From the UHGV virus genome UHGV-0128496: a stretch of DNA of 16,551 nucleotides; one strand, 5' to 3'. Under the pieces are notes generated by a model. The model did no database searches and was not told the DNA's origin. It saw only the letters and a program-made list of their open reading frames with translations. The DNA comes from a virus. Shown here piece after piece: positions 50 to 16,551 of the stretch. Position 1 is the first letter of the stretch, and every line of letters starts with the position of its first letter. The position numbers and the translations under genes are program-made.

Positions 50-1363
50 TTAACTGACTGATTTTAATAGTCCTATGCTGTTTGTTTGTGGCCTATGGGG
101 CATCAATGGGGCAAAGTCGCCCAGCTTCTGATTCAGCATTGCGATCTGCTCTGCGTTATTGTCTGCCATCCATGCGCCGTACACATTGAAAACCATCTGC
201 GCGCTAGCGTGCCCCATCTGACTGGCTATAAAGCTTGGATTGGCGCCGGCGGCGAGTGACCAGCACGCGTAAGTGTGGCGCGACTGGTAAGCTTTTCGAT
301 GCCTGATCCCCGCCTTTTTTAGCCCTGCGTCCCATGAGTCACCAAACGAATCCACCTTGTAGATAATCCCCACATCCTTACTTCGACGGACTATCTTAGG
401 GTTAAAGACAAATGTACACCGGTGCTTCGCCGTTCTACCATACTCACGCAATTGCACGTTGATGTGATGCTGTTGCCCGAGTCTGGTCATTTCCATCTGA
501 TTCCTTAAAACATCGATGGCTGGCTGAATGAGGTGTATCACTCTATCCGTACTGGCGTCAGTTTTCGGTAGTGTGAACTCGCCCAGCTTTGTATAATTGC
601 GGCGAATTGTTATTGTACCTGCCTCAAGGTCGATATCTTCCCATGCCAGGGAAACCAGCTCCCCGTGACGAACACCTGTGTACACCGCCAGTGACCACAT
701 GTTTTTCGTCTGCTGATGCCGGCATGCATCTATCAGACGGATGAACTCATCACGACTGAGCGGGTCTGGCTCTACCCTGGCTCTTTTTAATGGCTTTATT
801 CCATCAAAGGGATTTGCCTTTATGTACCCATTATCGGCGGCGAACTGGAACATTCCGGCGATAGTCGTCATGTAGTAATTGACGGTGACCGCGCTCCGGC
901 CCTTAACGGGGATCCTGCCCTTTACAGCGCACTGATAACCCATCAAAAGCTCTTTCCTGATATACAGCAACTCTTCTTTCTCAATCGCTGTCACCAGTCG
1001 GCTAGACCCGATCAGCGGTACAACAACAGCAACGACCGACTCGTACCGTTTGTGCGCGTTCGAGCTGATTTCCATCTTTTTCAGATCCAGCCACTTCTCT
1101 TCGAGTTCTTTCACTGTGATTTCTTTCTTTCCCAACCCAAAAATTTTAAGGTTAGGTGAATCTGGAAACCGTTCAGCATAATCAAAGCTTCCCGTGCGGA
1201 TGGCAAAGCATACCGACACCCGCAGTTCCCCGGCTATCTTTCTGTTCTTAGCGGTGTCAGGGACACCGAGGCTTTCCCTGACACGCTTACCTTTAAAATT
1301 AAACCAGATGCGTAAAGTGCCACCGTGGTTTTCGACGCCTGTTGGATATGTGACTTTATCCAT
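50..1363 (-). CDS. int: Phage tyrosine integrase (lambda-Int-like site-specific recombinase)
   Basis: 437-aa ORF with N-terminal arm-type DNA-binding region and C-terminal catalytic-core signature (R in TGVRHGEL, H-x-x-R in HRKAYQSRHTYACW, GHASAQMVFNVYGAW with tyrosine). GGAGG RBS 5 nt upstream of the ATG at 1363. Terminal position and adjacency to xis are typical of a prophage end. Confidence 0.9.
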   Translation of the reverse strand: MDKVTYPTGVENHGGTLRIWFNFKGKRVRESLGVPDTAKNRKIAGELRVSVCFAIRTGSFDYAERFPDSPNLKIFGLGKKEITVKELEEKWLDLKKMEISSNAHKRYESVVAVVVPLIGSSRLVTAIEKEELLYIRKELLMGYQCAVKGRIPVKGRSAVTVNYYMTTIAGMFQFAADNGYIKANPFDGIKPLKRARVEPDPLSRDEFIRLIDACRHQQTKNMWSLAVYTGVRHGELVSLAWEDIDLEAGTITIRRNYTKLGEFTLPKTDASTDRVIHLIQPAIDVLRNQMEMTRLGQQHHINVQLREYGRTAKHRCTFVFNPKIVRRSKDVGIIYKVDSFGDSWDAGLKKAGIRHRKAYQSRHTYACWSLAAGANPSFIASQMGHASAQMVFNVYGAWMADNNAEQIAMLNQKLGDFAPLMPHRPQTNSIGLLKSVS

Positions 1364-1695: not shown

Positions 1696-2274
1696 TTAGT
1701 TGTTGCTGGTGGTTGGGATTAGTTTCTGCCAAATCGCTGAAACATATTTCGCCTGGTGGCGGGCATCAGCCAGTGCGTTATGTGCAACCCCATCAAATGG
1801 CATATCACGCTTAGGATCGAAACCTACAACTCTGCCTAATGTGACGATGGTTCTGACGTCGTGATCATTCCAAAATTGCCACGGGCAAACCTGGCCGGCA
1901 CGCTCATATGCGCCGCGCAATATAACGTTGTCGAAAGTAGCTCCATTGCCCCAAACTTTTAAATATTTAGGGTTATCAGAATGCCGATTAATGAAATGGC
2001 TCAGTTCAGATAGGGCAGATGATATCGGCATCGCATCATCAACACAGATTGCTGATCGTGCTTCTGAGCTTTGTCTTAACCACCACAGAATAGTGTCACC
2101 GTCCGGCACCGCTCCCTGCTCCATAGCGCTTTCAAGGTTAACGGCGCTGTAAAACTCCTGACCCAGTTCACCGCTTTGCGGATCGAAGAACACGGCACCT
2201 ATGGAGACGATAGGGGCATTTGGTTTTTTGCCCATGGATTCGAGGTCGATCATTAAATTGTTCACGTTATACAT
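1696..2274 (-). CDS. DEDDh-family 3'-5' exonuclease (DnaQ-like)
   Basis: Exo motifs visible: LMIDLESMG (D-x-E), WGNGATFDNVIL, GVAHNALADARHQAKY (H-x4-D). I place the start at the internal ATG at 2274 (MYNVNN...), preceded directly by AGGAGA; the longer track ORF (to 2466) would overlap the upstream gene by 200 nt. Confidence 0.75.
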   Translation of the reverse strand: MYNVNNLMIDLESMGKKPNAPIVSIGAVFFDPQSGELGQEFYSAVNLESAMEQGAVPDGDTILWWLRQSSEARSAICVDDAMPISSALSELSHFINRHSDNPKYLKVWGNGATFDNVILRGAYERAGQVCPWQFWNDHDVRTIVTLGRVVGFDPKRDMPFDGVAHNALADARHQAKYVSAIWQKLIPTTSNN

Positions 2275-3049
2275 TCTCCTGCTGCGGTGCTGCTGCCTGC
2301 TCAGCTGCCATAGCTGCATCGATTTGCTCACGTAATTTGGTCGCGTGATAATCGTCATCTTCATCCGTGATGGTCTGCGACCAGAAAATGCTATGGCTTC
2401 CGTAAACCATAGGCTCACGAACATCAACGGTTTTAGATACCAGCCAGTCCATGCGGAGTACGTCATCCGGAGTTACCGGAGAGTTGCCAGCCTGGAGAAT
2501 AGATTTCAGCGCTGCCCTTGGCATTGCCGACCAGGCAAGGAATACGTCTGGCCTGTCGACATCTTCTGTCGGGAGAGTGTTTTCTATTTCGTCCAGCGCA
2601 TCACTTAGCTTCTGAAATGCGTCGTCTGGAACAACGTGGCACTCTTCGCCATCAACATCTTGCTGACAGCTATCATCTGCGAGTTCGAATGCGGCCCAGC
2701 AAACATTGAGCAGCATTTCAATAACGCGACGGTGTTCTGCTGTTACGCAATTCTCCGGCACTACCTGCGCTGGCGTGGCAGTGTAGAGCGGAATTACCGC
2801 ATCTCCCATTGGCTGAGACAGGCACTTAAGGTGAAGATCACCCATCTTTGCATAAGCCAGAGTTTCCTCAGCGGCATAAAGCACAGGCTCAGCATTCAGG
2901 ACTTCATCAATCACCTTCACAGCATCAGCCATTGCGTAGCCGAGATTACCGCCGTCGCTTTGTGCTGCTGCGTTGCTGAGTATTTCGCTTATCTGGTGCA
3001 GGCGATCGAGTGATACAGGACCGTGCGCCGGGTGGTTGTTAGTTGTCAT
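2267..3049 (-). CDS. Hypothetical acidic phage protein (260 aa), function unknown
   Basis: Long ORF in the coupled early-left operon; AGGGAGGA RBS 7 nt upstream of the ATG at 3049. Asp/Glu-rich with cysteine clusters; no motif I can assign. Confidence 0.6.
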   Translation of the reverse strand: MTTNNHPAHGPVSLDRLHQISEILSNAAAQSDGGNLGYAMADAVKVIDEVLNAEPVLYAAEETLAYAKMGDLHLKCLSQPMGDAVIPLYTATPAQVVPENCVTAEHRRVIEMLLNVCWAAFELADDSCQQDVDGEECHVVPDDAFQKLSDALDEIENTLPTEDVDRPDVFLAWSAMPRAALKSILQAGNSPVTPDDVLRMDWLVSKTVDVREPMVYGSHSIFWSQTITDEDDDYHATKLREQIDAAMAAEQAAAPQQENV

Positions 3050-5262: not shown

Positions 5263-6180
5263 TTAGGCTGCGGGTTTTTGTGGCTGTTCTTCTTTGTACG
5301 AAAGAAGATCACACATCAGGTTTACTACTTTGCTGAATTGGATTAGATCCGTCCCGGCCTGATGGCGCCATTGAAATGCTTTATCATCTTCATCGTTGAA
5401 TGTTTGGGCTTGGGTATTGATGCGCGAAAAATGGAAATTTTCGGTGAGGATGAACGATACACCGCATCCTGCTAGCTCCATTTTATCAGCGGTAAAGCCG
5501 CTATTAAGGCTATCAACTAGCTCGCTTTGAATTGAGTCGTGTTCAGCTGAGTAGCGAATAACTTCATTTTGATCGGCAAGGCGGGACAGCTGGATATAAT
5601 TGCCGACGGTAAACCCTTCAAAAGCATTGGCCACGCCATTGATATAGTTTTTCAACCGCGTAGTTAAACCGTTCTTAATATCGCTAATGTTGATTGTTTC
5701 TGTTTTAACGGAACCGACAACTTTCACCAGCATAGCCACAGCCATACCGGCAATATTTTTATTGGTCGTATTGACCACTAATAGCTTTTCGTTGGTGCTG
5801 TACAACGCAAGGATCAGCGTTGATTTAACAAATGCCCGTTTACACAGGTCAACGCGGACGCTGTCGATAATTGCTAATCGTTCGATACGTTTGATTTTAC
5901 TCCCGGACATATCTTCGATTCTTTGGATCCGTGCTGCGGCTTCCTTCAAAACAACATGCTGGGGAATGATTTTCTGATCATGGCGGATCACGATGGCATA
6001 CCCACCTGATATTGGGGTGACCAATTCGCCAGTGATCGGGTTTGGCACAAAAGAGGCGCGTGAAAACTCAGTTTCACCAATCTCGGAGTAGGGGAGTTCA
6101 AGCAGATGCCCCTCGATAGCTTCAATGCTAGGTAGTGTGGCGCGGTACACGATTGCGTTACGGAACTTAGGTAATTTCAT
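5263..6180 (-). CDS. rdgC: RdgC-like recombination-associated protein
   Basis: 305-aa ORF whose length and sequence pattern (N-terminal FRNAIVYR, central hydrophobic core, C-terminal acidic tail) match my memory of E. coli RdgC (about 303 aa). AGAGGAAAG RBS 5 nt upstream of the ATG at 6180. Confidence 0.65.
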   Translation of the reverse strand: MKLPKFRNAIVYRATLPSIEAIEGHLLELPYSEIGETEFSRASFVPNPITGELVTPISGGYAIVIRHDQKIIPQHVVLKEAAARIQRIEDMSGSKIKRIERLAIIDSVRVDLCKRAFVKSTLILALYSTNEKLLVVNTTNKNIAGMAVAMLVKVVGSVKTETINISDIKNGLTTRLKNYINGVANAFEGFTVGNYIQLSRLADQNEVIRYSAEHDSIQSELVDSLNSGFTADKMELAGCGVSFILTENFHFSRINTQAQTFNDEDDKAFQWRHQAGTDLIQFSKVVNLMCDLLSYKEEQPQKPAA

Positions 6181-6513
6181 TTAACTTTCCTCTGCACAAG
6201 GTTTTAGTCCATACACGAAGTTAAGGCGGCTGCCACCGCCGAACTTTCTCCATACACAACAGAGAAGGGCACCTGCATTAGTCGGCGGCTTGAGAGACCG
6301 CTTTCTTTTTGCCCGGGTGGATTGGGTTATGAGCCCGTCGCCCGGTGATGCCCTTTTCTGTTGTGCCCTGAAAAAGGCTGGCGGTTACCGGAAATACACG
6401 GGAAAACACCGGGCCGCCAGAACAGGGAGTTACTTGTTATTGCTTTAGCCTGCTTTTAACCACATCAGGCGCGGTGGTATCTTGGTGTTCTCACACAACC
6501 AAGAGGGATGTTT

Positions 6514-6711
6514 ATGGGCGCTTTTGATAACCAGGAAATTACGTTACCCGCATGCCCTAAGTGCGGCACTAAGACGAAGAAGAAAATCGCTTGGCTCAAG
6601 TCGAACAAAAGTTTCACTTGTCGATGTGGAGCTACTATCAATGTCAACAGCAGCCAGCTTACTTCCGAAATCAGGAAGGTTGAGGACAAGCTGAAGAAGC
6701 TCTTTAAATAG
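6514..6711 (+). CDS. Small Cys4 zinc-ribbon protein (about 65 aa), lysine-rich
   Basis: CPKCG-x15-CRCG zinc-ribbon signature. AGAGGGA RBS about 6 nt before the ATG at 6514; an intrinsic terminator follows the stop. It lies antisense to the 3' half of the minus-strand ORF 6544..6910. Confidence 0.45.
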   Translation: MGAFDNQEITLPACPKCGTKTKKKIAWLKSNKSFTCRCGATINVNSSQLTSEIRKVEDKLKKLFK

Positions 6712-6910
6712 TTTTTTATCGACTGATATTATTTCGTTATCAGAGGTTGGTTTTTCAGCCTCTGATTTTTTAGTCAGGATCATTTTTTCTACACATGTGA
6801 CTACGCATTCCGAACAGATGGCAGGTTCGTCCTTACCACCTTTTGCGACGATCTTTATCGCTCCCAGTTCGGTTGCTCCGCAAAATGAGCATGTGAATAA
6901 ATGATTCATG
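6544..6910 (-). CDS. ClpX-type C4 zinc-finger domain protein (N-position early gene)
   Basis: N-terminus MNHLFTCSFCGATELGAIKIVAKGGKDEPAICSECVVTCVEKMI aligns by eye with the ClpX N-terminal zinc-binding domain (CSFCG ... IC-x-EC-V-x-x-C). ATG at 6910 with GGTAGAGG RBS. It is the first ORF downstream of the PL-like promoter. The C-terminal about 55 codons are antisense to the plus-strand zinc-ribbon ORF. Confidence 0.45.
6739..6772 (+). terminator. Rho-independent terminator after the zinc-ribbon ORF
   Basis: Stem atcagagg (6739-6746) / cctctgat (6759-6766) with a 12-nt loop, followed by TTTTT(T). It is not a terminator in the minus orientation because no U-tract follows there. Confidence 0.5.
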
Positions 6911-7018
6911 TAAACCTCTACCCCCAACCTAAGTTTTCTGTCAGCGAATCATCCGGTTATTCATATGCCACCGGCGGCTACTTCGTGGGCGTCCTGCCTG
7001 TTCGCTTTCGATGCAATG

Positions 7019-7048
7019 ACTATAGCTACTTTAAGTAGATAATTGCAA
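7019..7048 (-). promoter_or_regulatory. PL-like leftward early promoter with embedded operator
   Basis: On the minus strand: -35 TTGCAA (7043-7048), 18-bp spacer, -10 TATAGT (complement of 7019-7024). The spacer contains the inverted repeat CTACT-TTA-AGTAG (7026-7038), the same motif found in the cI-cro intergenic region. Degenerate AGTAG half-sites lie at 7057-7061 and 7076-7080. Confidence 0.4.
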
Positions 7049-7110
7049 CAACAAAAAGTAGAAAATGAAATTTTTAGTAGTGTAGTGTTATGAGGTGAGG
7101 AATTGGAGGC

Positions 7111-7140
7111 GTAAAAAAAACCGGCTTTCGCCGGTTTCTT
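7111..7140 (-). terminator. Rho-independent terminator ending the cI transcript
   Basis: Stem CCGGC (7121-7125) / GCCGG (7130-7134) with TTTC loop, flanked by A8 on the plus strand. On the minus strand this reads hairpin plus U8, 14 nt past the cI stop. It is much weaker in the plus orientation (TTTCTT). Confidence 0.6.
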
Positions 7141-7153
7141 GATGAATTAATTA

Positions 7154-7873
7154 TTAGCCAAACTCTATCATTTTTAGAGGTAAGCATCTGATTAGCTTGC
7201 CGAATATGTATAGTTCATTCATTTCATGCTCCTCTATGAAGAAGGGCGGGTAATGTTCATTGTCTGAAAGAACTGCCAGTCGGCGCCCTTTTACCTTCTG
7301 CAAACGTTTAACGAACGTACTGTCTTCAAAATTGAACACATAAACGCCGTCGCCGCTGAATTGTTCAACCTTGCTGTCTATGAAAAGCAGGTCCTTTGGG
7401 CAAAGCGTGGGCATCATGCTATCGCCATCAACATTTATCATGACGATGCCATCAAGGCTTCTACGACCAAACAACTCGAAGATCCTCTCTTCTGGAATCT
7501 CTATTGAGCTCACTATTGTAGGGAATGGTTGGTTTATATATCCGGAACCGGCTGAAGCATGAACATCCAATTGCTCTATTCTGACCGTGCCTTTGGCTGG
7601 CGCGTCGCCACCATTAACAGGCACACCATAATCAAGATAAGCCGGTGAGACGGCAAGTCTTTCTGCAATTCGAATCATCTTCTCATCTCTCGGCTTTGCA
7701 GTACCAAGAGTGTAGCGCCGCGCCATCTCATACGAGACACCACTGAACTCTGACAATTCTTTAACTCCAATAGATTGCTCTTGGAGAGACCTGTTTAGCC
7801 TTTCGGCAAAGTCTTTGTATTTAGCATTTTCCACCATAAGTAGAAGATTAAGCGCACAAGGCATAGTTGTCAT
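7154..7873 (-). CDS. cI: CI-like prophage repressor (N-terminal HTH, C-terminal S24 LexA-type peptidase)
   Basis: HTH segment VKELSEFSGVSYEMARRY; S24 self-cleavage signature VDGDSMMPT (Ser) and FVKRL (Lys). Coordinates are the maximal ORF. The in-frame ATG at 7837 (MVENAKYKDF...) is the more likely start: a PRM-like promoter (-35 ATGACA, complement of 7868-7873; 17-bp spacer; -10 TAATCT, complement of 7845-7850) would place the transcript start at that ATG, giving a leaderless mRNA as for lambda cI. Confidence 0.85.
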   Translation of the reverse strand: MTTMPCALNLLLMVENAKYKDFAERLNRSLQEQSIGVKELSEFSGVSYEMARRYTLGTAKPRDEKMIRIAERLAVSPAYLDYGVPVNGGDAPAKGTVRIEQLDVHASAGSGYINQPFPTIVSSIEIPEERIFELFGRRSLDGIVMINVDGDSMMPTLCPKDLLFIDSKVEQFSGDGVYVFNFEDSTFVKRLQKVKGRRLAVLSDNEHYPPFFIEEHEMNELYIFGKLIRCLPLKMIEFG

Positions 7874-7914
7874 TTCTATTTTAAGTTGCTAATAATTGCT
7901 ACTATAAGTAGTAT
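7831..7914. promoter_or_regulatory. Immunity-region operators with divergent PRM/PR promoters
   Basis: Three inverted-repeat sites of type CTACT-N3-AGTAG: perfect CTACT-ATA-AGTAG (7899-7911), degenerate CTATT-TTA-AGTTG (7876-7888) and CCACC-ATA-AGTAG (7831-7843). PR candidate: -35 TTGCTA (7886-7891), 17-bp spacer, -10 TAGTAT (7909-7914), upstream of the cro RBS AGGAGA (7933-7938). The operators overlap the -35 and -10 elements of both promoters. Confidence 0.45.
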
Positions 7915-7942
7915 TGATGCAGGCTTAGTCATAGGAGAACAC

Positions 7943-8200
7943 ATGTCATCTCAACACAAGAATGTAACAGCTAAAGCTGTGAAGGCGATCGGGTCGATTT
8001 CAGAGGTATCAAGGCGGTTTGAATTCCAATCAGTTCAATCTGTTGCGAACTGGATTGCAAAGAACCGAGTACCTTCTGAAAGAGTTATTCAACTCTGCCA
8101 ATGGGGCGGATGGGTAGTAACTCCCCATCAATTACGACCTGATATTTATCCGAACAAAAATGACGGCATACCTTCCGCTAACAACAATAGTCAACTTTAA
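7943..8200 (+). CDS. cro: Cro-like HTH regulator (YdaS-like)
   Basis: First rightward gene, divergent from cI. AGGAGA RBS 5 nt before the ATG at 7943. The segment AIGSISEVSRRFEFQSVQSVANWIAKNRVP is HTH-like. The track ORF begins at an upstream start with no SD. Confidence 0.6.
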   Translation: MSSQHKNVTAKAVKAIGSISEVSRRFEFQSVQSVANWIAKNRVPSERVIQLCQWGGWVVTPHQLRPDIYPNKNDGIPSANNNSQL

Positions 8201-8231
8201 GTTGATTATTAACTACCAGAGGGAAATCAAC

Positions 8232-8795
8232 ATGGTAGACAGCATAAATACAGCAATCCGCCTGATGTGTAAGGCACACAAGCATGGTCGCTTAGGTATG
8301 GCTTCCGATTTAGGGATGACTATCGACCAGTTCCACAACCACCTGTACCAGAAGTGTGGCAGTCGGTTCTTTACCTTGGCAGAACTGGAACGGATGGAGG
8401 ACCTGTCTGGTTCTTGTTACTTGGCCGAGTACCAGGCGAACCGAAAAGGGAAATGGCTGGTGGATGTTCCAACTGCTGAGAGCCTGGATAACGTTGAGCT
8501 GTACAGCATTGAGATGAAAGCGGCAGCAGCATCTGGTGAGCTGGCTAATGCCAAGATGGCAGCAGCGGCTGATGGGGTAATTGATTCATCAGAGCGCAAA
8601 ACGCTTTCAGAATTATTCAGTAAGAAGCTCCGCCACCAGATTCACGGGTTCCTGGGATTTATGGCGCTTTATGGGGTTGGTGTTTCAGATCAGGCGATTG
8701 ACGTATTCGTTTCAACAGGCAGAAAAGGTGACGCCCGCGAGTGTGCAGCTCCGGGCGCCTTGGCGTGTCGTATCAGTGGAGAAACTAACGCATGA
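8232..8795 (+). CDS. cII-position early protein (possibly YdaT-like), function unknown
   Basis: ORF directly after cro with AGAGGGAAA RBS 7 nt before the ATG at 8232. Its position matches ydaS-ydaT of Rac-like prophages, but I cannot confirm sequence similarity from memory. Confidence 0.45.
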   Translation: MVDSINTAIRLMCKAHKHGRLGMASDLGMTIDQFHNHLYQKCGSRFFTLAELERMEDLSGSCYLAEYQANRKGKWLVDVPTAESLDNVELYSIEMKAAAASGELANAKMAAAADGVIDSSERKTLSELFSKKLRHQIHGFLGFMALYGVGVSDQAIDVFVSTGRKGDARECAAPGALACRISGETNA

Positions 8796-9130
8796 ACAGT
8801 GTAAACCGATTCAGACCAGCTAAGCAATTCAGATGTTTGCCGCTGGTGGGTAAAGATGCCCAGTTCGGCTATGTGGAAATCATAAATAACGCGGCTGATG
8901 GAGGCAACTACCAGCCAGCAGACTTGATGGTAGAAGCATTTGTTCAGATGAACGAGAAGGGGCGCGAGGAATGGCTGAAGTTAACCGGCGGTTCAGAGAT
9001 CACTACGGAGTTCCCGTCAGAGTTGTCCGCTGGGAGCCAGATACACAGCGCGTTATATACCTTCGCGAAGGGTACGATCATGAGTGCTTCAGCCCTCTTG
9101 AACAATTCCAGCGTAAATTTACAGAATTAA
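8792..9130 (+). CDS. Hypothetical early protein (112 aa)
   Basis: Its ATG overlaps the upstream stop (ATGA), so it is coupled within the early-right operon. No recognisable motif. Confidence 0.5.
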   Translation: MNSVNRFRPAKQFRCLPLVGKDAQFGYVEIINNAADGGNYQPADLMVEAFVQMNEKGREEWLKLTGGSEITTEFPSELSAGSQIHSALYTFAKGTIMSASALLNNSSVNLQN

Positions 9131-9139
9131 AGGACGACC

Positions 9140-9994
9140 ATGAGCACTAAATTAACCGGTTACGTATGGGATGCATGCGCTTCGTCAGGCATGAAGTTAT
9201 CCAGCGTTGCCATCATGGCGCGTCTGGCAGACTTCAGCAGTGATGAAGGGGTTAGCTGGCCTTCCATCGCTACCATCGCGCGCCAGATTGGTGCTGGTGA
9301 GAGCACGGTTCGTACAGCCATATCTCAGCTGGAAAAAGATGGTTGGTTAACCCGCCAGCAGCGCCGTAAAGGCAACCGAAATGCATCGAACGTTTACCAG
9401 CTCAATGTTGCGAAATTGCAGGCTGCTGCCTTTTCTCACCTGTCAGATTCTGACGCATCAAAATCTGATGCCTCAAAAACAGACGCGTCAAAATCTGAGG
9501 CATCAAAAAACGATGAAAAAGGCGGTTTTCACCCGTCAGAATCTGGGGGGGATCCGTCAGTAAATACAACTACTGATCCATCAGTTAAAAAACCTTCTTG
9601 TCCGGTTGCGCCGCAACCAGACCCTGAAGTGATGATCACCGATAACGCCATCCTGGTTCTGAATCATCTGAACCTGGTTAGTGGCTCACGATACCAAAAA
9701 TCAAAAACTTCTCTGGAAAACATCCGTGCTCGTCTGCGTGAAGGTTACACCGTTAGCGACTTACAGCTGGTGATCGACCTTAAGCATGAGCACTGGAACG
9801 GCAATGACGTGCAGTACCAGTACATGCGTCCTGAAACGCTCTTCGGTCCGAAAAAATTTGAAGGTTATCTGCAAAGCGGGATCCGCTGGGACAAGAAGGG
9901 GCGGCCACCGCGTGACAGCTGGGGTGAAAAGAAACATGACCCGATGAAGTTCGGTCCGGTTGATAGCAAGATTCCAGAGGGGTTCAGAGGATGA
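9140..9994 (+). CDS. Replication initiation protein (lambda-O-like; N-terminal winged HTH, conserved phage C-terminal domain)
   Basis: N-terminus VAIMARLADFSSDEGVSWPSIATIARQIGAGESTVRTAISQLEKDGWL is typical of HTH_36-type initiators. A low-complexity linker (DASKS x4) precedes a conserved C-terminal domain (VLNHLNLVSGSRYQ ... LFGPKKFEGYLQ). The position after the cro/cII module matches a replication gene. Confidence 0.7.
   Translation: MSTKLTGYVWDACASSGMKLSSVAIMARLADFSSDEGVSWPSIATIARQIGAGESTVRTAISQLEKDGWLTRQQRRKGNRNASNVYQLNVAKLQAAAFSHLSDSDASKSDASKTDASKSEASKNDEKGGFHPSESGGDPSVNTTTDPSVKKPSCPVAPQPDPEVMITDNAILVLNHLNLVSGSRYQKSKTSLENIRARLREGYTVSDLQLVIDLKHEHWNGNDVQYQYMRPETLFGPKKFEGYLQSGIRWDKKGRPPRDSWGEKKHDPMKFGPVDSKIPEGFRG
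9452..9511 (+). repeat. Four tandem 15-bp iteron-like repeats inside the initiator gene (putative origin)
   Basis: gacgcatcaaaatct / gatgcctcaaaaaca / gacgcgtcaaaatct / gaggcatcaaaaaac, with partial copies on both sides. Each has a near-palindromic GAYGCRTC core and an A-tract. Lambda ori likewise lies as iterons inside the O gene. Confidence 0.45.
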
Positions 9995-11325
9995 TGGAAA
10001 ATAAATACTGCCGTGCACTGGCTGAACTCCGTTCAAAACCAGCACACGAGTTGAAAGAGGTCGGTGATCAATGGCGCACTCCGGATCTGTTGTTTTGGGG
10101 GATCAATGCGATGTTCGGCCCTCTGGTGTTGGACCTTTTTGCCGACGACAGCAACGCGAAGTGCCCAGCATGGTACACGGCTGAAGATAATGCCCTGACG
10201 CAGGATTGGTCAGAGCGGCTGGCAGAACTCGGTGGTGCCGGGTTTGGCAACCCGCCTTACAGCCGCTCTCAGTACCACGACAAGCAGGCCGTTACCGGAA
10301 TGACCCACATCATTAACCACGCTATGGCCATGCGAGAAAAGGGTGGTCGGTACGTTTTTCTCATTAAGTCTGCGACGAGTGAAACGTGGTGGCCGGAAGA
10401 GGCAGATCACGTCACATTCATCCGTGGCCGAATTGGTTTCGATCTTCCTACATGGTTCGTGCCGAAAGACGAAAAGCAGCAGCCCACCAGCGCATTTTTT
10501 GCTGGCGCTATCGTGGTCTTCGACAAAACATGGCGGGGTGAGCGTTTCAGTTACATCAACCGCACCGACCTGGAGGCCAAAGGCCGTGCTGCGATGTCGC
10601 TGGCCCAATTTGCCGTGGGAAGAACGCAAACTGATGCGGCGCCAGAGCTGGACGCTGAGGTAGTGCCGAAGAAATCAGAGGCAGAACTGCCATTAACCCA
10701 AAAAGCCATTCTGGAAACCAGCGGTGTAGAGGCTTGGGCCTGTGTTGTCGCGGCGTTCGGCGAGAAAGACGAGTACACCTTCAGCGAGTCAAAGTTTGGT
10801 CATACCTGGGCTGCCGACTCTCTGGAAAACCCTGAATTTACCAATGTTTCACCGCTGACGATCGACAGAGCGAAAAAGCTGATCAGCGAGAGCATCCTGG
10901 TGGGTGTTAATGCATGGCTGGAAACATTGCCCTTTGATAGCGATGACGTGAAACAAGACATGTCAGAGCGGTTACGCACGGTTGCCGTTGAGTCTGCGAA
11001 AGAATACGGCATTAACCACAGTGAATTCATCGCGACCATGGAAAGCCTGGATAAAGCCAAATGGTCAAATATTCGGGGGATCCGCGCCCATGTCCGTGAG
11101 ACGCAGGAATCAAAGGACAAGGCGTTAAACGAATCGCGCGTTTGGCCTCTTGAGGTTGGACTGGTGTTTAACCAGATTGAAGGGGCTGACGCTCTACCTG
11201 TTTCGCAGCAGAACAAGCTGAAAGCCAATATCAACCAGCTGTGGCTCGAACGTATGCCGACGAGTGAAATTATCACGACCGCTGGTGGTCTCTTCAACAG
11301 CATGCAGGGGGCCGTCAATGCGTGA
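9991..11325 (+). CDS. Phage Dam-family N6-adenine DNA methyltransferase with about 240-aa C-terminal extension
   Basis: N-terminal about 200 aa carry WRTPD and the catalytic FGNPPYS (NPPY) motif of phage Dam-type N6A MTases. Its ATG overlaps the initiator stop (ATGATG). Residues about 205-444 have no motif I recognise. Confidence 0.8.
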   Translation: MMENKYCRALAELRSKPAHELKEVGDQWRTPDLLFWGINAMFGPLVLDLFADDSNAKCPAWYTAEDNALTQDWSERLAELGGAGFGNPPYSRSQYHDKQAVTGMTHIINHAMAMREKGGRYVFLIKSATSETWWPEEADHVTFIRGRIGFDLPTWFVPKDEKQQPTSAFFAGAIVVFDKTWRGERFSYINRTDLEAKGRAAMSLAQFAVGRTQTDAAPELDAEVVPKKSEAELPLTQKAILETSGVEAWACVVAAFGEKDEYTFSESKFGHTWAADSLENPEFTNVSPLTIDRAKKLISESILVGVNAWLETLPFDSDDVKQDMSERLRTVAVESAKEYGINHSEFIATMESLDKAKWSNIRGIRAHVRETQESKDKALNESRVWPLEVGLVFNQIEGADALPVSQQNKLKANINQLWLERMPTSEIITTAGGLFNSMQGAVNA

Positions 11326-13255
11326 AATTATCGTTGATAACTTTGCTGGTGGCGGCGGCGCGAGTACCGGCATTGAACTGGCGATCGGGCGTAGCGTGGA
11401 TATCGCTATCAACCACGACGAAAACGCTATTGCGATGCATAAGACGAATCACCCTGACACGCTGCATTATTGCGAGTCGGTGTTTGACGTTGACCCAAGC
11501 GCAGCCACCAGCGGTAAACCTGTCGGTCTGGCCTGGTTTAGCCCTGACTGCCGCCACTTTTCCAAGGCGAAGGGCGCTAAGCCGGTTAAGAAAGAGATTC
11601 GCGGGCTGGCGTGGATTGTCCTGCGCTGGGCGCTGGCAGTACGTCCCCGCGTCATGATGCTGGAGAACGTCGAAGAGTTTAAGACATGGGGCCCGCTGCT
11701 GGATGAAGAATTACGCCCGGATCCTGAGCGTGCTGGCGAAACATTCGAGGCATTTGTCGGCATGCTGTCGACGGGGATCGCGGCGAATCACCCTGCGCTG
11801 GCTGAGGTTTGTGAATTCCTTGCCATTGAGCCGCACGGCCAGCAGGCGCAACAGCTGATCGCCGGGCTTGGTTATGAGGTTGATTATCGGGAGCTGCGCG
11901 CATGTGACTACGGCGCGCCGACGATCAGAAAGCGTTTCTTCATGGTCATGCGCTGTGACGGCCGCAAGATTCATTGGCCTGAAGCGACTCATGGGGATCC
12001 AAAATCACTGGAAGTACAAAGCGGCAAGCTGGCGCCATGGCGTACCGCGGCGGAGTGCATTGACTGGAATATCCCGGCCCGGTCCATCTTCGACCGCAAA
12101 AAGCCGCTGGCGGAAAATACGCTCAAACGTATCGCGCGCGGCATCCAGCGCTTTGTTATCGAAAGCGCATCACCTTTCATCGTGAAGTGTAACCACACCA
12201 CGACGAAAGGAGGTTATGACTGTTTCCGCGGGCAATCGTTGTTAGAGCCATTGCAGACCATCACTAAAAAGCATGGCTACGCACTGGCGGTACCGCATCT
12301 TACTAAATTCCGCACCGGGGCCACCGGGCAGCCAGTGACCGAGCCGGTACCAACTGTCACCGCTGGTACGTCGGCGCGCCCGGGCGGGAATGGGCATGCG
12401 CTTGGCGTAGTTGAGGCCGCCCTGACACCGTTCCTGGCTGGCAATGGCGGCAGTGAGTACCAGGCAAAGCCGCGCCCGCTGGATAAACCCGCTCATACAA
12501 TCCTCAAGCAGTCCCGCGCGTGCGTGGTTGCGCCGGTCATCGCCCGCCAGTTTGGAGCCAGTGTTGGGCACAGGGCTGACGAACCGAGTGCGACGATTAC
12601 TGCAGGTGGTGGCGGTAAGTCGCAGCTGGTAACTCCAACACTGATCCAGATGGGGTACGGCGAACGCCCAGGGCAAGAACCGCGTGTTCTTCAACTGAAT
12701 AACCCGCTCGGCACGGTCACTGCTGGTGGTAATAAGTTTGCAACGGTGAGCGCGTTCCTGGCGAAGCACTATGGTGGGAATTACACGGGGCCGGGTGTTG
12801 GTATGGATGAGCCTGCCCACTCAGTCACTACTGTTGATCACCACGCGGTAGTTGCGTCGCACCTGGTGAAGCTGCGCGGAACCTGCCGCGACGGTCAGAC
12901 CATGGATACACCTATGCCGACGATTACCGCTGGTGGCCAGCACGTTGGCGAGGTCCGGACATTCCTCGAAACCTACTGCGGTGATAGCGAGGATGAATGG
13001 CTGGTGACGATCGAGGGGGTTAAGTACCAGATCGTCGATATCGGAATGCGCATGCTGCAACCGCATGAGCTTTATAAGGCGCAGGGCTTCCCTGACGGCT
13101 ACGTTATCGATCAGGACTATCGCGGCAATCGTTACGCCAAAGACAAGCAGGTAGCGCGCTGTGGTAACGCAGTACCGCCGCCGTTCGCTCGTGCGCTGGT
13201 AGAAGCAAATCTTCCTGAATTATGTGCAAATCAAAAGGCGGGTGCAGCCGCCTGA
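11318..13255 (+). CDS. DNA cytosine-5 methyltransferase (large, repeat-containing variable region)
   Basis: Motif I FAGGGGAS, an ENV motif (MLENVEEF) and C-terminal CGNAVPPP; the Cys motif reads SPDCRHFS rather than canonical PCQ. Start taken at the ATG at 11318 (MREIIVDNFAGGGG), overlapping the Dam stop; the track ORF extends upstream in the same frame. The region between the catalytic and C-terminal motifs holds about five P-x-x-T-[VI]-T-A-G-G repeats. Confidence 0.8.
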   Translation: MREIIVDNFAGGGGASTGIELAIGRSVDIAINHDENAIAMHKTNHPDTLHYCESVFDVDPSAATSGKPVGLAWFSPDCRHFSKAKGAKPVKKEIRGLAWIVLRWALAVRPRVMMLENVEEFKTWGPLLDEELRPDPERAGETFEAFVGMLSTGIAANHPALAEVCEFLAIEPHGQQAQQLIAGLGYEVDYRELRACDYGAPTIRKRFFMVMRCDGRKIHWPEATHGDPKSLEVQSGKLAPWRTAAECIDWNIPARSIFDRKKPLAENTLKRIARGIQRFVIESASPFIVKCNHTTTKGGYDCFRGQSLLEPLQTITKKHGYALAVPHLTKFRTGATGQPVTEPVPTVTAGTSARPGGNGHALGVVEAALTPFLAGNGGSEYQAKPRPLDKPAHTILKQSRACVVAPVIARQFGASVGHRADEPSATITAGGGGKSQLVTPTLIQMGYGERPGQEPRVLQLNNPLGTVTAGGNKFATVSAFLAKHYGGNYTGPGVGMDEPAHSVTTVDHHAVVASHLVKLRGTCRDGQTMDTPMPTITAGGQHVGEVRTFLETYCGDSEDEWLVTIEGVKYQIVDIGMRMLQPHELYKAQGFPDGYVIDQDYRGNRYAKDKQVARCGNAVPPPFARALVEANLPELCANQKAGAAA

Positions 13256-13269
13256 TATGGAGAAATAGC

Positions 13270-13962
13270 ATGAATCAGTTAACCGCTAAGGGTGTTGTGA
13301 CAATGTCCAGCCGTGAAATTGCCAGGCTGGTGCAGAGCAAACATGGTGATGTGAAGCGCTCAGCTGAGCGCCTTGCATCTGCTGGTATTTTAACCGCGCC
13401 GTTGGCGCACACCCCCTACACACACCCGCAAAACGGGCAAACCTACGAGGAGTATTGGTTTAACAAACGTGATTCTCTGGTGATCGTCGCCAGGCTGTCG
13501 CCAGAATTTACCGCCGCTGTTGTCGATCGCTGGCAAGAGCTGGAGAACAGCCAGGCCGTAAGTGTCCCGCAAACATTGCCGGAGGCATTACGTCTCGCCG
13601 CGGATCTGGCCGAGCAGAAAGAACAACTCAGCCAGCAGTTAGCCGCTGCCGCGCCGAAAGTTGAGTTTGTCGATCGATATTGTACTGCCAAAGGCTCAAT
13701 GTCTTTCCGCCAGGTGGCAAAGCTGTTGCAGGCCAAAGAGACCGATTTCCGCTTGTTCCTCATTGAGAGCGGCATTTTGTACCGGCTCAGTGGAGTGCTG
13801 ACACCTCGGCACCAGCACATTGCTGCCGGGCGGTTTGAAGTGAAAACTGGCACTACGAGCGAAACAAACTACGCCTTTAGCCAGGCACGTTTTACACCCA
13901 AAGGCATCGAGTGGATCGGCGGCCTGTGGACGGCACACATCGCTAAGGGGCATGCCGCGTGA
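13270..13962 (+). CDS. Rha-family regulator / antirepressor (Rha N-terminal domain plus KilA-C/ANT-like C-terminus)
   Basis: N-terminus MSSREIARLVQSKHGDVKRSAERL resembles the Rha domain; C-terminal EALRLAADLAEQKEQL ... KVEFVDRY resembles ANT/KilA-C. GGAGAAA RBS 5 nt before the ATG at 13270. Confidence 0.65.
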   Translation: MNQLTAKGVVTMSSREIARLVQSKHGDVKRSAERLASAGILTAPLAHTPYTHPQNGQTYEEYWFNKRDSLVIVARLSPEFTAAVVDRWQELENSQAVSVPQTLPEALRLAADLAEQKEQLSQQLAAAAPKVEFVDRYCTAKGSMSFRQVAKLLQAKETDFRLFLIESGILYRLSGVLTPRHQHIAAGRFEVKTGTTSETNYAFSQARFTPKGIEWIGGLWTAHIAKGHAA

Positions 13963-15020
13963 GAGGACTGTTTACAGCCGAGACTGTTCCGCGCCTTGGG
14001 CTTGTGCTGTTAAAGCCGGGTAGCGAACTGATGTCTTTGTTTCAACAGGGGCGTGTGCTGGTGGAGCCTCAGCCAAAAAGCATGGCTGGGCTTCCGTCGG
14101 GGCTCGTCCCTGATGCCCGGCAGCCGCTGGCAGAAGATAAGTCCCTCGAGGAATTCTTCACCGACGAGAGAGTTATCCGTGCAGCAGGCGGTTTGTCCGG
14201 GTTGGAATCCTGGCTAGAGCGTAACGTGAAGGAATGCCAGTACCCGCACACTAATTATCACCATCATGAGCTGGTAACGATGCGACATCCCCCTGGATCA
14301 ATGTTGCTCTGTTGGCATTGCGATAACCAGCTGCGCGAGCAAACCACCGCGGCGCTGGCAGAACTGGCCCGGCGTAATCTCATTAACTGGCTGATCAGTT
14401 CTATCCTGTCTTCGCTTGGCTACAACAACGAGCGTGAACTATCCCTCGGTGAATTGTGCTGGTGGGCCGTTTACTCAGGCATTGCTGATGCAATCACGGA
14501 AAGGATGGCCCAGCATGCGCTTCGCTTACCGGATGAGCCGTTTTTATCCGTATATCGCGAAAGTGACATTGTGCCGATGCCACCGACAAAAAACATTTTG
14601 CAGAAGAAGGTCACCCCTGCGGTCACGGCTGCGCATTTAAAGCATGGAACAAATCAGGAAGTGGCCTATGACCAGCCACAGGTTCTGGCTCTGCATGCGG
14701 ATCCTGAATCCCCTGAATCATTCATGTTGCGCCCAAAACACCGCAGGTGGGTGAATGAGGACTATACCCGGTGGGCTAAAACCCAGCCCTGTGAAGGTTG
14801 CCGGCGGCCAGCGGATGATCCACACCATGTCATTGGTCACGGCATGGGCGGTACCGCCACTAAAGCCCACGATTTGTTCGTGATCCCTCTGTGCAGAGAG
14901 TGTCACGACAAATTACATGCTGATGTTGCAGCGTTCGAGAAAAAACACGGTACCCAGCTGGAGCTGCTATTCCGATTTATGAATCGAGCGCTGGCGATCG
15001 GCGTAATAACAAAAGCGTAA
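13959..15020 (+). CDS. DUF968-like prophage protein with C-terminal HNH-like zinc motif
   Basis: GTG start overlapping the Rha stop (GTGA), with AAGGGG 8 nt upstream. C-terminus PCEGCRRPADDPHHVIGHGMGGTATKAHDLFVIPLCRECHDKLH has an HNH-like arrangement (CxxC ... HH ... CxxCH). I recall DUF968 (YdfU-like) proteins sitting next to Q in Qin-like prophages. Confidence 0.5.
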   Translation: MRGLFTAETVPRLGLVLLKPGSELMSLFQQGRVLVEPQPKSMAGLPSGLVPDARQPLAEDKSLEEFFTDERVIRAAGGLSGLESWLERNVKECQYPHTNYHHHELVTMRHPPGSMLLCWHCDNQLREQTTAALAELARRNLINWLISSILSSLGYNNERELSLGELCWWAVYSGIADAITERMAQHALRLPDEPFLSVYRESDIVPMPPTKNILQKKVTPAVTAAHLKHGTNQEVAYDQPQVLALHADPESPESFMLRPKHRRWVNEDYTRWAKTQPCEGCRRPADDPHHVIGHGMGGTATKAHDLFVIPLCRECHDKLHADVAAFEKKHGTQLELLFRFMNRALAIGVITKA

Positions 15021-15041
15021 TTGTATGGAGCGCTGAGCATA

Positions 15042-15734
15042 ATGAATTTACAAGAACTGGAATATACGCGGATTGAACTGCGCCGCGCGCTGGCGGATTT
15101 ATCAGGATCGACAAAAGGACAGCTGCAGGCGTTCAGTGAGCATCCACCAGCAGATAAGAATAAATACCCCCGGCACCATCCTGAAATCGTCATGGAGGGT
15201 GGGGAAGGTTGTGGGTCAAAGGTTGTAACAACGCTGGCCACTCCATTTTATGTTCTTGAGACAAGGAGCCGTCGTCGACCTTTGCCGCCTATTAAAGATA
15301 CGGAGTTCGCTTGTTCAGCATGGCGTCGTTCGGTCAATGGTCTGGGTGAGCATTTGCAGGCATGGGTGCGGTACTGCTATGGGTATGACCTTACTTTCCG
15401 GTACCAGACATTGATGTGCCAGCACGTGTGGGAACAGTTTCAGCGTCAGCATAGCGGCAAAAAAATACAGGGCCGCGTCACTAAAAAACTGGTAGGGCTT
15501 GTCTGGCTGGCGGCGCAAGAAGTTGCTGCCTCGCGTAATAACGATACCTATCAGGAGTATGCTGGTGCAGCTCTGGCGCGCATGGTCAGCGTTGAGCGTT
15601 CCACCTGGCTCAGAGTGTATTCAGGCCACTGGGCGGCTTTCAAAGCGTCGTTTGCTGAAATGGATAGCCAGGCACTAAGCGAAATTTTGTCACGGTACGA
15701 AGAGTACCAAGAACTGAAAGTGGCGGAAATGTGA
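15042..15734 (+). CDS. Late-gene antitermination protein Q-like
   Basis: Last gene of the early-right operon, immediately upstream of a promoter-plus-terminator pair. Size and sequence fit my recollection of enterobacterial Q-like proteins. Start placed at the ATG at 15042 (MNLQELEY...). Confidence 0.5.
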   Translation: MNLQELEYTRIELRRALADLSGSTKGQLQAFSEHPPADKNKYPRHHPEIVMEGGEGCGSKVVTTLATPFYVLETRSRRRPLPPIKDTEFACSAWRRSVNGLGEHLQAWVRYCYGYDLTFRYQTLMCQHVWEQFQRQHSGKKIQGRVTKKLVGLVWLAAQEVAASRNNDTYQEYAGAALARMVSVERSTWLRVYSGHWAAFKASFAEMDSQALSEILSRYEEYQELKVAEM

Positions 15735-15792
15735 GGTAACTTTCACTAACTCCCTCAAATGGGCTTGCAAAATGCAACAAAATGAGCCATAT

Positions 15793-15821
15793 TTGAAGCT
15801 AATTTTATATTTTGTCATAAT
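15793..15821 (+). promoter_or_regulatory. PR'-like late promoter candidate
   Basis: -35 TTGAAG (15793-15798), 17-bp spacer, -10 CATAAT (15816-15821), just upstream of a terminator. An alternative is TTGCAA (15765-15770) with CATATT (15788-15793). Confidence 0.4.
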
Positions 15822-15831
15822 TATATCTAAC

Positions 15832-15853
15832 CTCGCCTCGGCGGGGTTTTTTT
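15832..15853 (+). terminator. tR'-like rho-independent terminator
   Basis: GC-rich hairpin cctcgcc-tcg-gcgggg followed by T7 (15847-15853). Its position directly after Q and a promoter matches the lambdoid 6S-RNA/tR' arrangement. Confidence 0.6.
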
Positions 15854-15932
15854 ATGCCTTTTGTATCTAAAGCTTGATGCAAAAATGAACCAGAGTTATC
15901 TGTGTGTCACACGATAAAAAAGGGGAAAAGGC

Positions 15933-16124
15933 ATGCAAAATCAACCTTATATGACAGAAGAAGCAAAAGCGGTTTTTAACGAACTCAGCGCTTCACCAGC
16001 GACAGCTGGGGAAATTGCACAGAATACGCACCTAAGCCGAGAGAAATGCCAGCTCATCCTGACGCAGCTGGTTATGGCGGGGTTATCAGATTACCAGTTT
16101 GGATGTTACAAACGCCTCCACTGA
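15933..16124 (+). CDS. Small hypothetical protein (63 aa), possible winged-helix DNA-binding
   Basis: AAGGGGAAAAGG RBS directly upstream of the ATG at 15933. The segment ATAGEIAQNTHLSREKCQLILTQLVMAGL is HTH-like. It is the first gene after tR'. Confidence 0.4.
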   Translation: MQNQPYMTEEAKAVFNELSASPATAGEIAQNTHLSREKCQLILTQLVMAGLSDYQFGCYKRLH

Positions 16125-16274
16125 AGGGGGCATTCTGCTGTGGAAATGGGCGGCTGGTGGGTGTTGTAGCACCCAACCAGCCATTAGCTCATGCTTTCAG
16201 GTCACAAGCTAACCAAGGCCCACTGCTTTAGCGCAAAAGCATAGTGAGCCTATCAGAGTTACGCTTACGGATCT

Positions 16275-16530
16275 ATGAAAAATACTGTAAATATAAACAG
16301 TGTTGAGCTTATCAACGCTGACTGCCTGCAATACCTCGCTACCCTCCCAGATAACACCATCGACCTTATTGTTACGGATCCGCCTTATTTTAAGGTGAAG
16401 CCGAACGGCTGGGATAATCAGTGGAACGGTGACGCCGACTATCTTCGATGGCTTGATATGTGTCTTGCCCAGTTCTGGCGAGTGCTTAAGCCTGCCGGCA
16501 GCCTGTATTTGTTTTCAGGTCACCGACTTG
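16275..16530 (+). CDS. DNA methyltransferase, N6-adenine/N4-cytosine beta-class (5' fragment, truncated by contig end)
   Basis: Hand translation: MKNTVNINSVELINADCLQYLATLPDNTIDLIVTDPPYFKVKPNGWDNQWNGDADYLRWLDMCLAQFWRVLKPAGSLYLFSGHRL, with the DPPY catalytic motif near the N-terminus. No stop codon before the adapter junction at 16531. Confidence 0.7.
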
Positions 16531-16551
16531 AGATCGGAAGAGCACACGTCT
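16531..16551. other. Illumina TruSeq adapter (sequencing artifact, not biological)
   Basis: The last 21 nt, agatcggaagagcacacgtct, exactly match the start of the TruSeq adapter AGATCGGAAGAGCACACGTCTGAACTCCAGTCA. Confidence 0.9.

Follow-up and report, generated by a model that had tools for sequence, protein, structure and literature searches.

An untrimmed Illumina adapter at the end of a lambdoid prophage contig, where assembly cuts a DNA methyltransferase gene short

Results

The window analyzed here, a stretch of 16,551 nucleotides (nt) from the virus genome UHGV-0128496, makes up the left arm of a lambdoid prophage and begins with an integrase gene (positions 50-1363, minus strand) whose product contains Arm-DNA-bind_2 and Phage_integrase domains, and it also encodes a DUF1233 excisionase, a protein with an Rv2179c-like exonuclease domain, an HNH protein, an Ead/Ea22-like protein, RdgC, and a CI-like S24 repressor. 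Further to the right follow genes for a CP76 (cII-like) protein, an O-like replication protein, two DNA methyltransferases in addition to the one that is the main subject here, an antirepressor, a DUF968 protein, and the antiterminator Q. In the alignment to the phiP27 record, position 1 of that record (attL) corresponds to window position 21, and in E. coli chromosomes (longer contigs) an identical integrase adjoins DUF72, MAPEG, and two methyltransferase-domain genes, which we take to be yecE (DUF72), yecN (MAPEG), cmoA, and cmoB. The 5' edge of the window is a prophage-host junction and not a contig end: the source contig reaches 18,960 nt further to the left, and the window starts inside this 35.5-kb contig because the prophage-host boundary lies there.

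Two long open reading frames (ORFs) on the minus strand, at positions 1696-2466 and 2267-3049, overlap by ~200 nt. The former contains the Rv2179c-like 3'-5' exoribonuclease domain (residues 69-246), and its true start is probably located downstream of the listed ATG; the latter has no Pfam match. Position 6220, a short distance past the right-hand end of the RdgC gene (5263-6180), is exactly where similarity to the window begins in four phage records (KM389288, Flotzy, LLS, and phiNP), and this suggests a mosaic or recombination boundary that they have in common.

Three DNA methyltransferase genes, each of a different family, are present in the prophage. The first (9991-11325, plus strand) is located right after the O-like gene and encodes a protein of 444 amino acids, of which the N-terminal ~200 match phage Dam (PF05869 and TIGR01712); across the relatives, the Dam-domain protein ranges from 217 to 444 amino acids. 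The second (11318-13255, plus strand) encodes a protein of 645 amino acids with a C5-cytosine methyltransferase domain (PF00145/dcm) in its N-terminal part. The third, a PF01555 N6/N4 DNA methyltransferase gene that starts at 16275, is found downstream from the antiterminator Q gene (15042-15734, plus strand; 230-amino-acid product, PF06323 Phage_antiter_Q), which is likewise identified by the RefSeq annotation of the relative CX21. Just downstream of Q are a match to a sigma-70-like promoter with an extended -10 TG (15793-15821, plus strand) and a strong terminator-like hairpin followed by a T-run (15829-15848, plus strand); the two elements, both recognized purely as consensus matches, would fit a putative Q-dependent late promoter and terminator. 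Ten E. coli assemblies that carry an identical 63-amino-acid ORF upstream of the methyltransferase all have the gene order Q, 63-amino-acid ORF, methyltransferase of 350 amino acids (354 in one assembly), small ORF, and lysozyme, and the small ORF belongs to a holin family in 8 of the 10. The methyltransferase thus lies in an accessory-gene slot flanked by Q and the lysis cassette.

The last 21 nt of the window (16531-16551, plus strand) read AGATCGGAAGAGCACACGTCT and are identical at 21 of 21 positions to the 5' prefix of the Illumina TruSeq-type read-1 adapter, AGATCGGAAGAGCACACGTCTGAACTCCAGTCA. The 3' terminus consists of ...TTTTCAGGTCACCGACTTG followed by AGATCGGAAGAGCACACGTCT, and genome and tail together form the string ...GACTTGAGATCGGAAGAGCACACGTCT. 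The sequence AGATCGGAAGAGCACACGTCTGAACTCCAGTCA, a 33-nt trimming sequence, has been given as the Illumina read-1 adapter, and the read-1 and read-2 adapters are identical in their first 13 bases only (PMC8722114). Since the match runs past base 13, where the two adapters diverge, the tail corresponds specifically to the read-1 (index-side) adapter. The adapter 33-mer is named together with "TruSeq" in 321 papers of the literature searched; the read-1 adapter oligonucleotide is, however, common to many TruSeq-compatible kits, and "TruSeq" therefore labels the sequence and not necessarily the kit. The retained piece comprises 21 nt of an adapter of more than 33 nt, and both the remainder (GAACTCCAGTCAC) and the index are absent from the contig.

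When both strands were searched, the 21-mer occurred once in the window (plus strand, 16531-16551), and no second copy was found on either strand of the window with up to 3 mismatches allowed. None of 200 dinucleotide-preserving shuffles of the window contained a match, and the analytic expectation for an exact 21-mer on both strands of the window is ~7.5e-9. The sole extra match to the 13-mer core of the adapter lies at 14966-14978 and has 2 mismatches, which is within chance expectation. No reverse-complement suffix of the TruSeq read-1, read-2, or Nextera adapters was present at the 5' end of the window, and the 32-mer that spans the junction between genome and adapter had no match among the viral contigs searched. 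The initial annotation had identified the terminal 21 nt as an exact TruSeq adapter prefix, and this identification is borne out by the complete match, its uniqueness in the window, and its absence from all shuffles. The terminal 21 nt are synthetic adapter DNA and not part of the genome.

Comparison with related sequences located the junction to the base. All 26 related sequences examined (including a 100%-identical phage contig, complete E. coli chromosomes, and 14 IMG/VR contigs recovered by a scan with the genuine 33-mer that ends at 16530) match the window up to 16530, with no further match. The closest of these is the phage contig KM389288 (100% identity over 780 nt and 99.9% over window positions 6220-16530), and the second closest are five E. 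coli CX-strain chromosomes (99.2%). When window positions 15751-16551 were compared by megablast with phage records and with 5,426 complete E. coli genomes, every alignment stopped at query position 780 (16530) or a few bases short of it; none crossed 16530, either in the phage records or in the 48 complete E. coli genomes with matches. In local BLAST comparisons with 12 fetched loci, the rightmost high-scoring segment pair ended exactly at 16530 in 12 of 12, with each subject sequence extending at least 3 kb further. The junction alignment shows identity through ...GACTTG, after which two relatives continue with CATCCGATAT(T/C)GAGATCATG, in contrast to AGATCGGAAG in the window. Read base by base, all 16 relatives that share the preceding 33-mer go on with CATC(C/T)GATAT..., and the adapter is found in the window only. 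The G at 16530 (plus strand), which is followed by CATC in these 16 relatives, is the last genuine genomic base and the end of the library insert, and the A at 16531 corresponds to the A-tail/adapter junction base of ligation-based libraries.

Beyond the junction, the relatives vary among themselves at 5 and 11 nt. Another possibility considered was that a small deletion had brought genuine downstream sequence to this position. The motif AGATC recurs 12 nt past the junction in the relatives; only these 5 nt agree, and we regard the recurrence as a coincidence.

An exact lookup of the 92-amino-acid chimeric product that reads from the methyltransferase into the tail returned a single source record, ENA ERZ783497 NODE_123_length_35511_cov_4.737336. 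The NODE_length_cov name follows the SPAdes convention and reports a k-mer coverage of ~4.7x. The window corresponds to positions 18961-35511 of this record. The range fetched, with a 10-kb flank requested, was 25235-35511; this locus ends at 35511 of 35511, and the final 10277 bases of the window match it without a difference. The partial gene is located at the very end of the record, which stops one base past it, so the window and the source record truly end at the same base, and the adapter tail is terminal in the record and points outward. The initial annotation had also interpreted the contig end as a library artifact, with which the record coordinates and the divergence of the relatives at the junction agree, and it had named as evidence to the contrary the presence of the same 21 nt in an independent assembly; they are absent from all 48 matching complete E. 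coli genomes.

The methyltransferase ORF starts with an ATG at 16275 and remains open, in frame, to the end of the window. Its genuine part (16275-16529, plus strand) comprises 85 of 350 codons, and the G at 16530 is the first base of codon 86, which is GAG (Glu) in the window versus GCA (Ala) in the relatives. The seven residues that follow codon 85, EIGRAHV, are encoded by the adapter. The 85-amino-acid fragment matches the Pfam N6_N4_Mtase profile with 34.1 bits (gathering score, 26.7) over profile positions 1-55 of 221, and the full-length KM389288 homologue (350 amino acids) matches it with 148.2 bits over positions 1-219 of 221. Catalytic motif IV, DPPY, is contained in the fragment (residues 35-38; ...LIVTDPPYFKV...). 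The FxGxG AdoMet-binding motif I is found near residue 310 (DFFMGSGST) in the 100%- and 99.2%-identical relatives, that is, beyond the contig end, and it is missing from the window copy because the contig ends at codon 85. From this motif order (DPPY before FxGxG), the gene product is predicted to be a beta-class N6/N4 DNA methyltransferase. No NCBIfam equivalog matched the methyltransferase at its cutoff; the best model was PRK11524 (108.9 versus 292 bits).

An intact 350-amino-acid PF01555 product is encoded both by the 100%-identical phage contig and by a 99.2%-identical complete E. coli chromosome, and at the same position eight further E. coli assemblies encode a product of 350 amino acids and a ninth one of 354. 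WP_059446190.1 (E. coli CX21, 350 amino acids, annotated as "DNA-methyltransferase") differs from the 85 residues of the window at one residue. The first 85 residues of the KM389288 homologue are identical to those of the window, both have the DPPY motif, and in each the gene is found between Q and the lysis genes. In comparison to the PF01555 enzymes of lambdoid prophages, the window copy lacks residues 86-350, solely as a result of the contig end. No stop codon, frameshift, insertion, or deletion was found in the genuine part of the ORF, which is open and matches the intact homologue at 100% of its nucleotides up to 16530.

A natural pseudogene or a naturally truncated methyltransferase was considered and rejected, the sole disruption being the adapter and the contig end. 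It had been claimed at the outset that the methyltransferase ORF is cut at the junction and that calling it a natural pseudogene would be wrong. Both statements hold: 85 codons precede the junction, the relatives are intact at 350 amino acids, and the genuine sequence shows nothing that would point to a pseudogene. The methyltransferase is a partial gene at a contig edge, truncated by assembly rather than by biology, and we infer that the source strain's own gene is intact.

An exact scan found the identical 21-mer in at least 120 IMG/VR contigs. In the fetched loci of these contigs, 121 of 125 copies are located within 250 nt of the locus end to which they point (median, 48 nt), where the locus end serves as a proxy for the contig end and some loci are pieces of longer contigs. 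Among the IMG/VR loci listed, one copy near a locus end points inward. Four internal copies among the loci listed (L056, L098, L109, and L110) could mark chimeric joins. The outward, terminal geometry of the IMG/VR copies is that expected of read-through artifacts and is the same as the geometry observed here, which makes the tail an instance of a common artifact. The 92-amino-acid chimeric product (window 16275-16550, plus strand; 85 genuine residues followed by EIGRAHV) is present in a public protein collection, where it comes from one contig; the artifact has already spread from DNA to a protein catalogue.

Discussion

The adapter tail at the end of this prophage contig is an ordinary assembly and library artifact without biological content, and it almost certainly represents adapter read-through that was carried over into an assembly of short metagenomic reads. 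We observed directly that the tail is adapter sequence lying at the terminus and pointing outward, that the junction falls at a defined base, that the gene is intact in near-identical relatives, and that the record name gives a low coverage. In the sequence of events that we propose, a fragment of an E. coli-type lambdoid prophage would have ended at 16530 in the library, and the insert would have been shorter than the read, such that, from the A at 16531 onward, the sequencer read the adapter ligated to it. The reads would then have been left untrimmed or been incompletely trimmed. At a coverage of ~4.7x, the assembler could have extended the contig end with the adapter-containing read and then been left with nothing to extend, the genuine continuation being absent or very thin in the sample. 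That the tail is 21 nt long is probably due to the point at which this read stopped. The data contain nothing at odds with the read-through account; an assembler would, however, normally give preference to genuine sequence with coverage over the tip of an adapter.

This same preference also bears on a second explanation, in which the tail is artificial but the break is real, with the methyltransferase interrupted or recombined just past 16530 (by an insertion, deletion, or rearrangement) or with DNA molecules repeatedly ending at 16530, for example after cutting by a nuclease or during packaging. If the assembler would have taken a covered genuine path, the continuation must have been missing or thin; furthermore, prophage contigs often break at mosaic boundaries and strain-variable sites, and the relatives do vary 5 and 11 nt past the junction. 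We nevertheless consider a real break very unlikely. A coverage of ~4.7x is by itself enough for a random break, and the site falls well inside a conserved ORF, where there is neither a repeat nor the end of a mobile element. In the relatives, the terminase genes lie ~2.5 to 4.5 kb further downstream, and the cos/pac region is accordingly expected there; moreover, phage contig KM389288, with 100% identity across the 780 genuine bases nearest the junction and 99.9% across 10.3 kb, continues through the site without a break. The contig break itself more probably results from the low coverage (cov_4.7 in the record name).

A chance identity between genuine genomic sequence and the adapter prefix is favored by the presence of the 21 nt in the deposited contig and by nothing else, and we regard it as extremely unlikely. 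The chance expectation of ~7.5e-9 per window and the 200 shuffles without a match stand against it, as does the location of the string exactly at the contig terminus, pointing outward. Moreover, the 16 relatives, one of them 100% identical, all differ from the window from exactly position 16531 on, and no complete E. coli genome aligns past 16530. Least probable of all, to a degree that we treat as negligible, is that the adapter is internal, as a chimeric join or an adapter-mediated misassembly in a contig that extends past the window: 4 of the 125 IMG/VR copies are internal among the loci listed, but here the 35511-nt record stops at 35511 and the fetched locus is identical to the window tail.

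Read-through of an untrimmed adapter has consequences that are limited to data hygiene. If the tail is left in place, the methyltransferase could be miscounted as a pseudogene or as a truncated variant, and the spurious EIGRAHV peptide enters protein catalogues; in addition, adapter tails that are shared can yield false similarity between unrelated contigs. The correction is to trim 16531-16551, to flag the methyltransferase as partial at the contig edge, and to ignore EIGRAHV.

The case has no essential difference from TruSeq-type read-through contamination in deposited assemblies, with which it shares the adapter prefix, the position at the terminus, the outward direction, and the junction at the end of the insert; here, 21 nt were kept without the index, and a screen that needs a longer match could therefore miss the tail. 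Adapter artifacts of this kind are what the NCBI VecScreen and FCS-adaptor tools screen for. Contamination by library oligonucleotides is also found with another technology, since Oxford Nanopore adapters and barcodes contaminate GenBank assemblies (PMC13182109). In both cases, library oligonucleotides have entered public assemblies via incomplete trimming and have been propagated downstream. The contig described here differs from the Nanopore cases in the platform and the oligonucleotides involved, in being a short-read, SPAdes-style contig, and in carrying its adapter at the terminus rather than as an embedded fragment.
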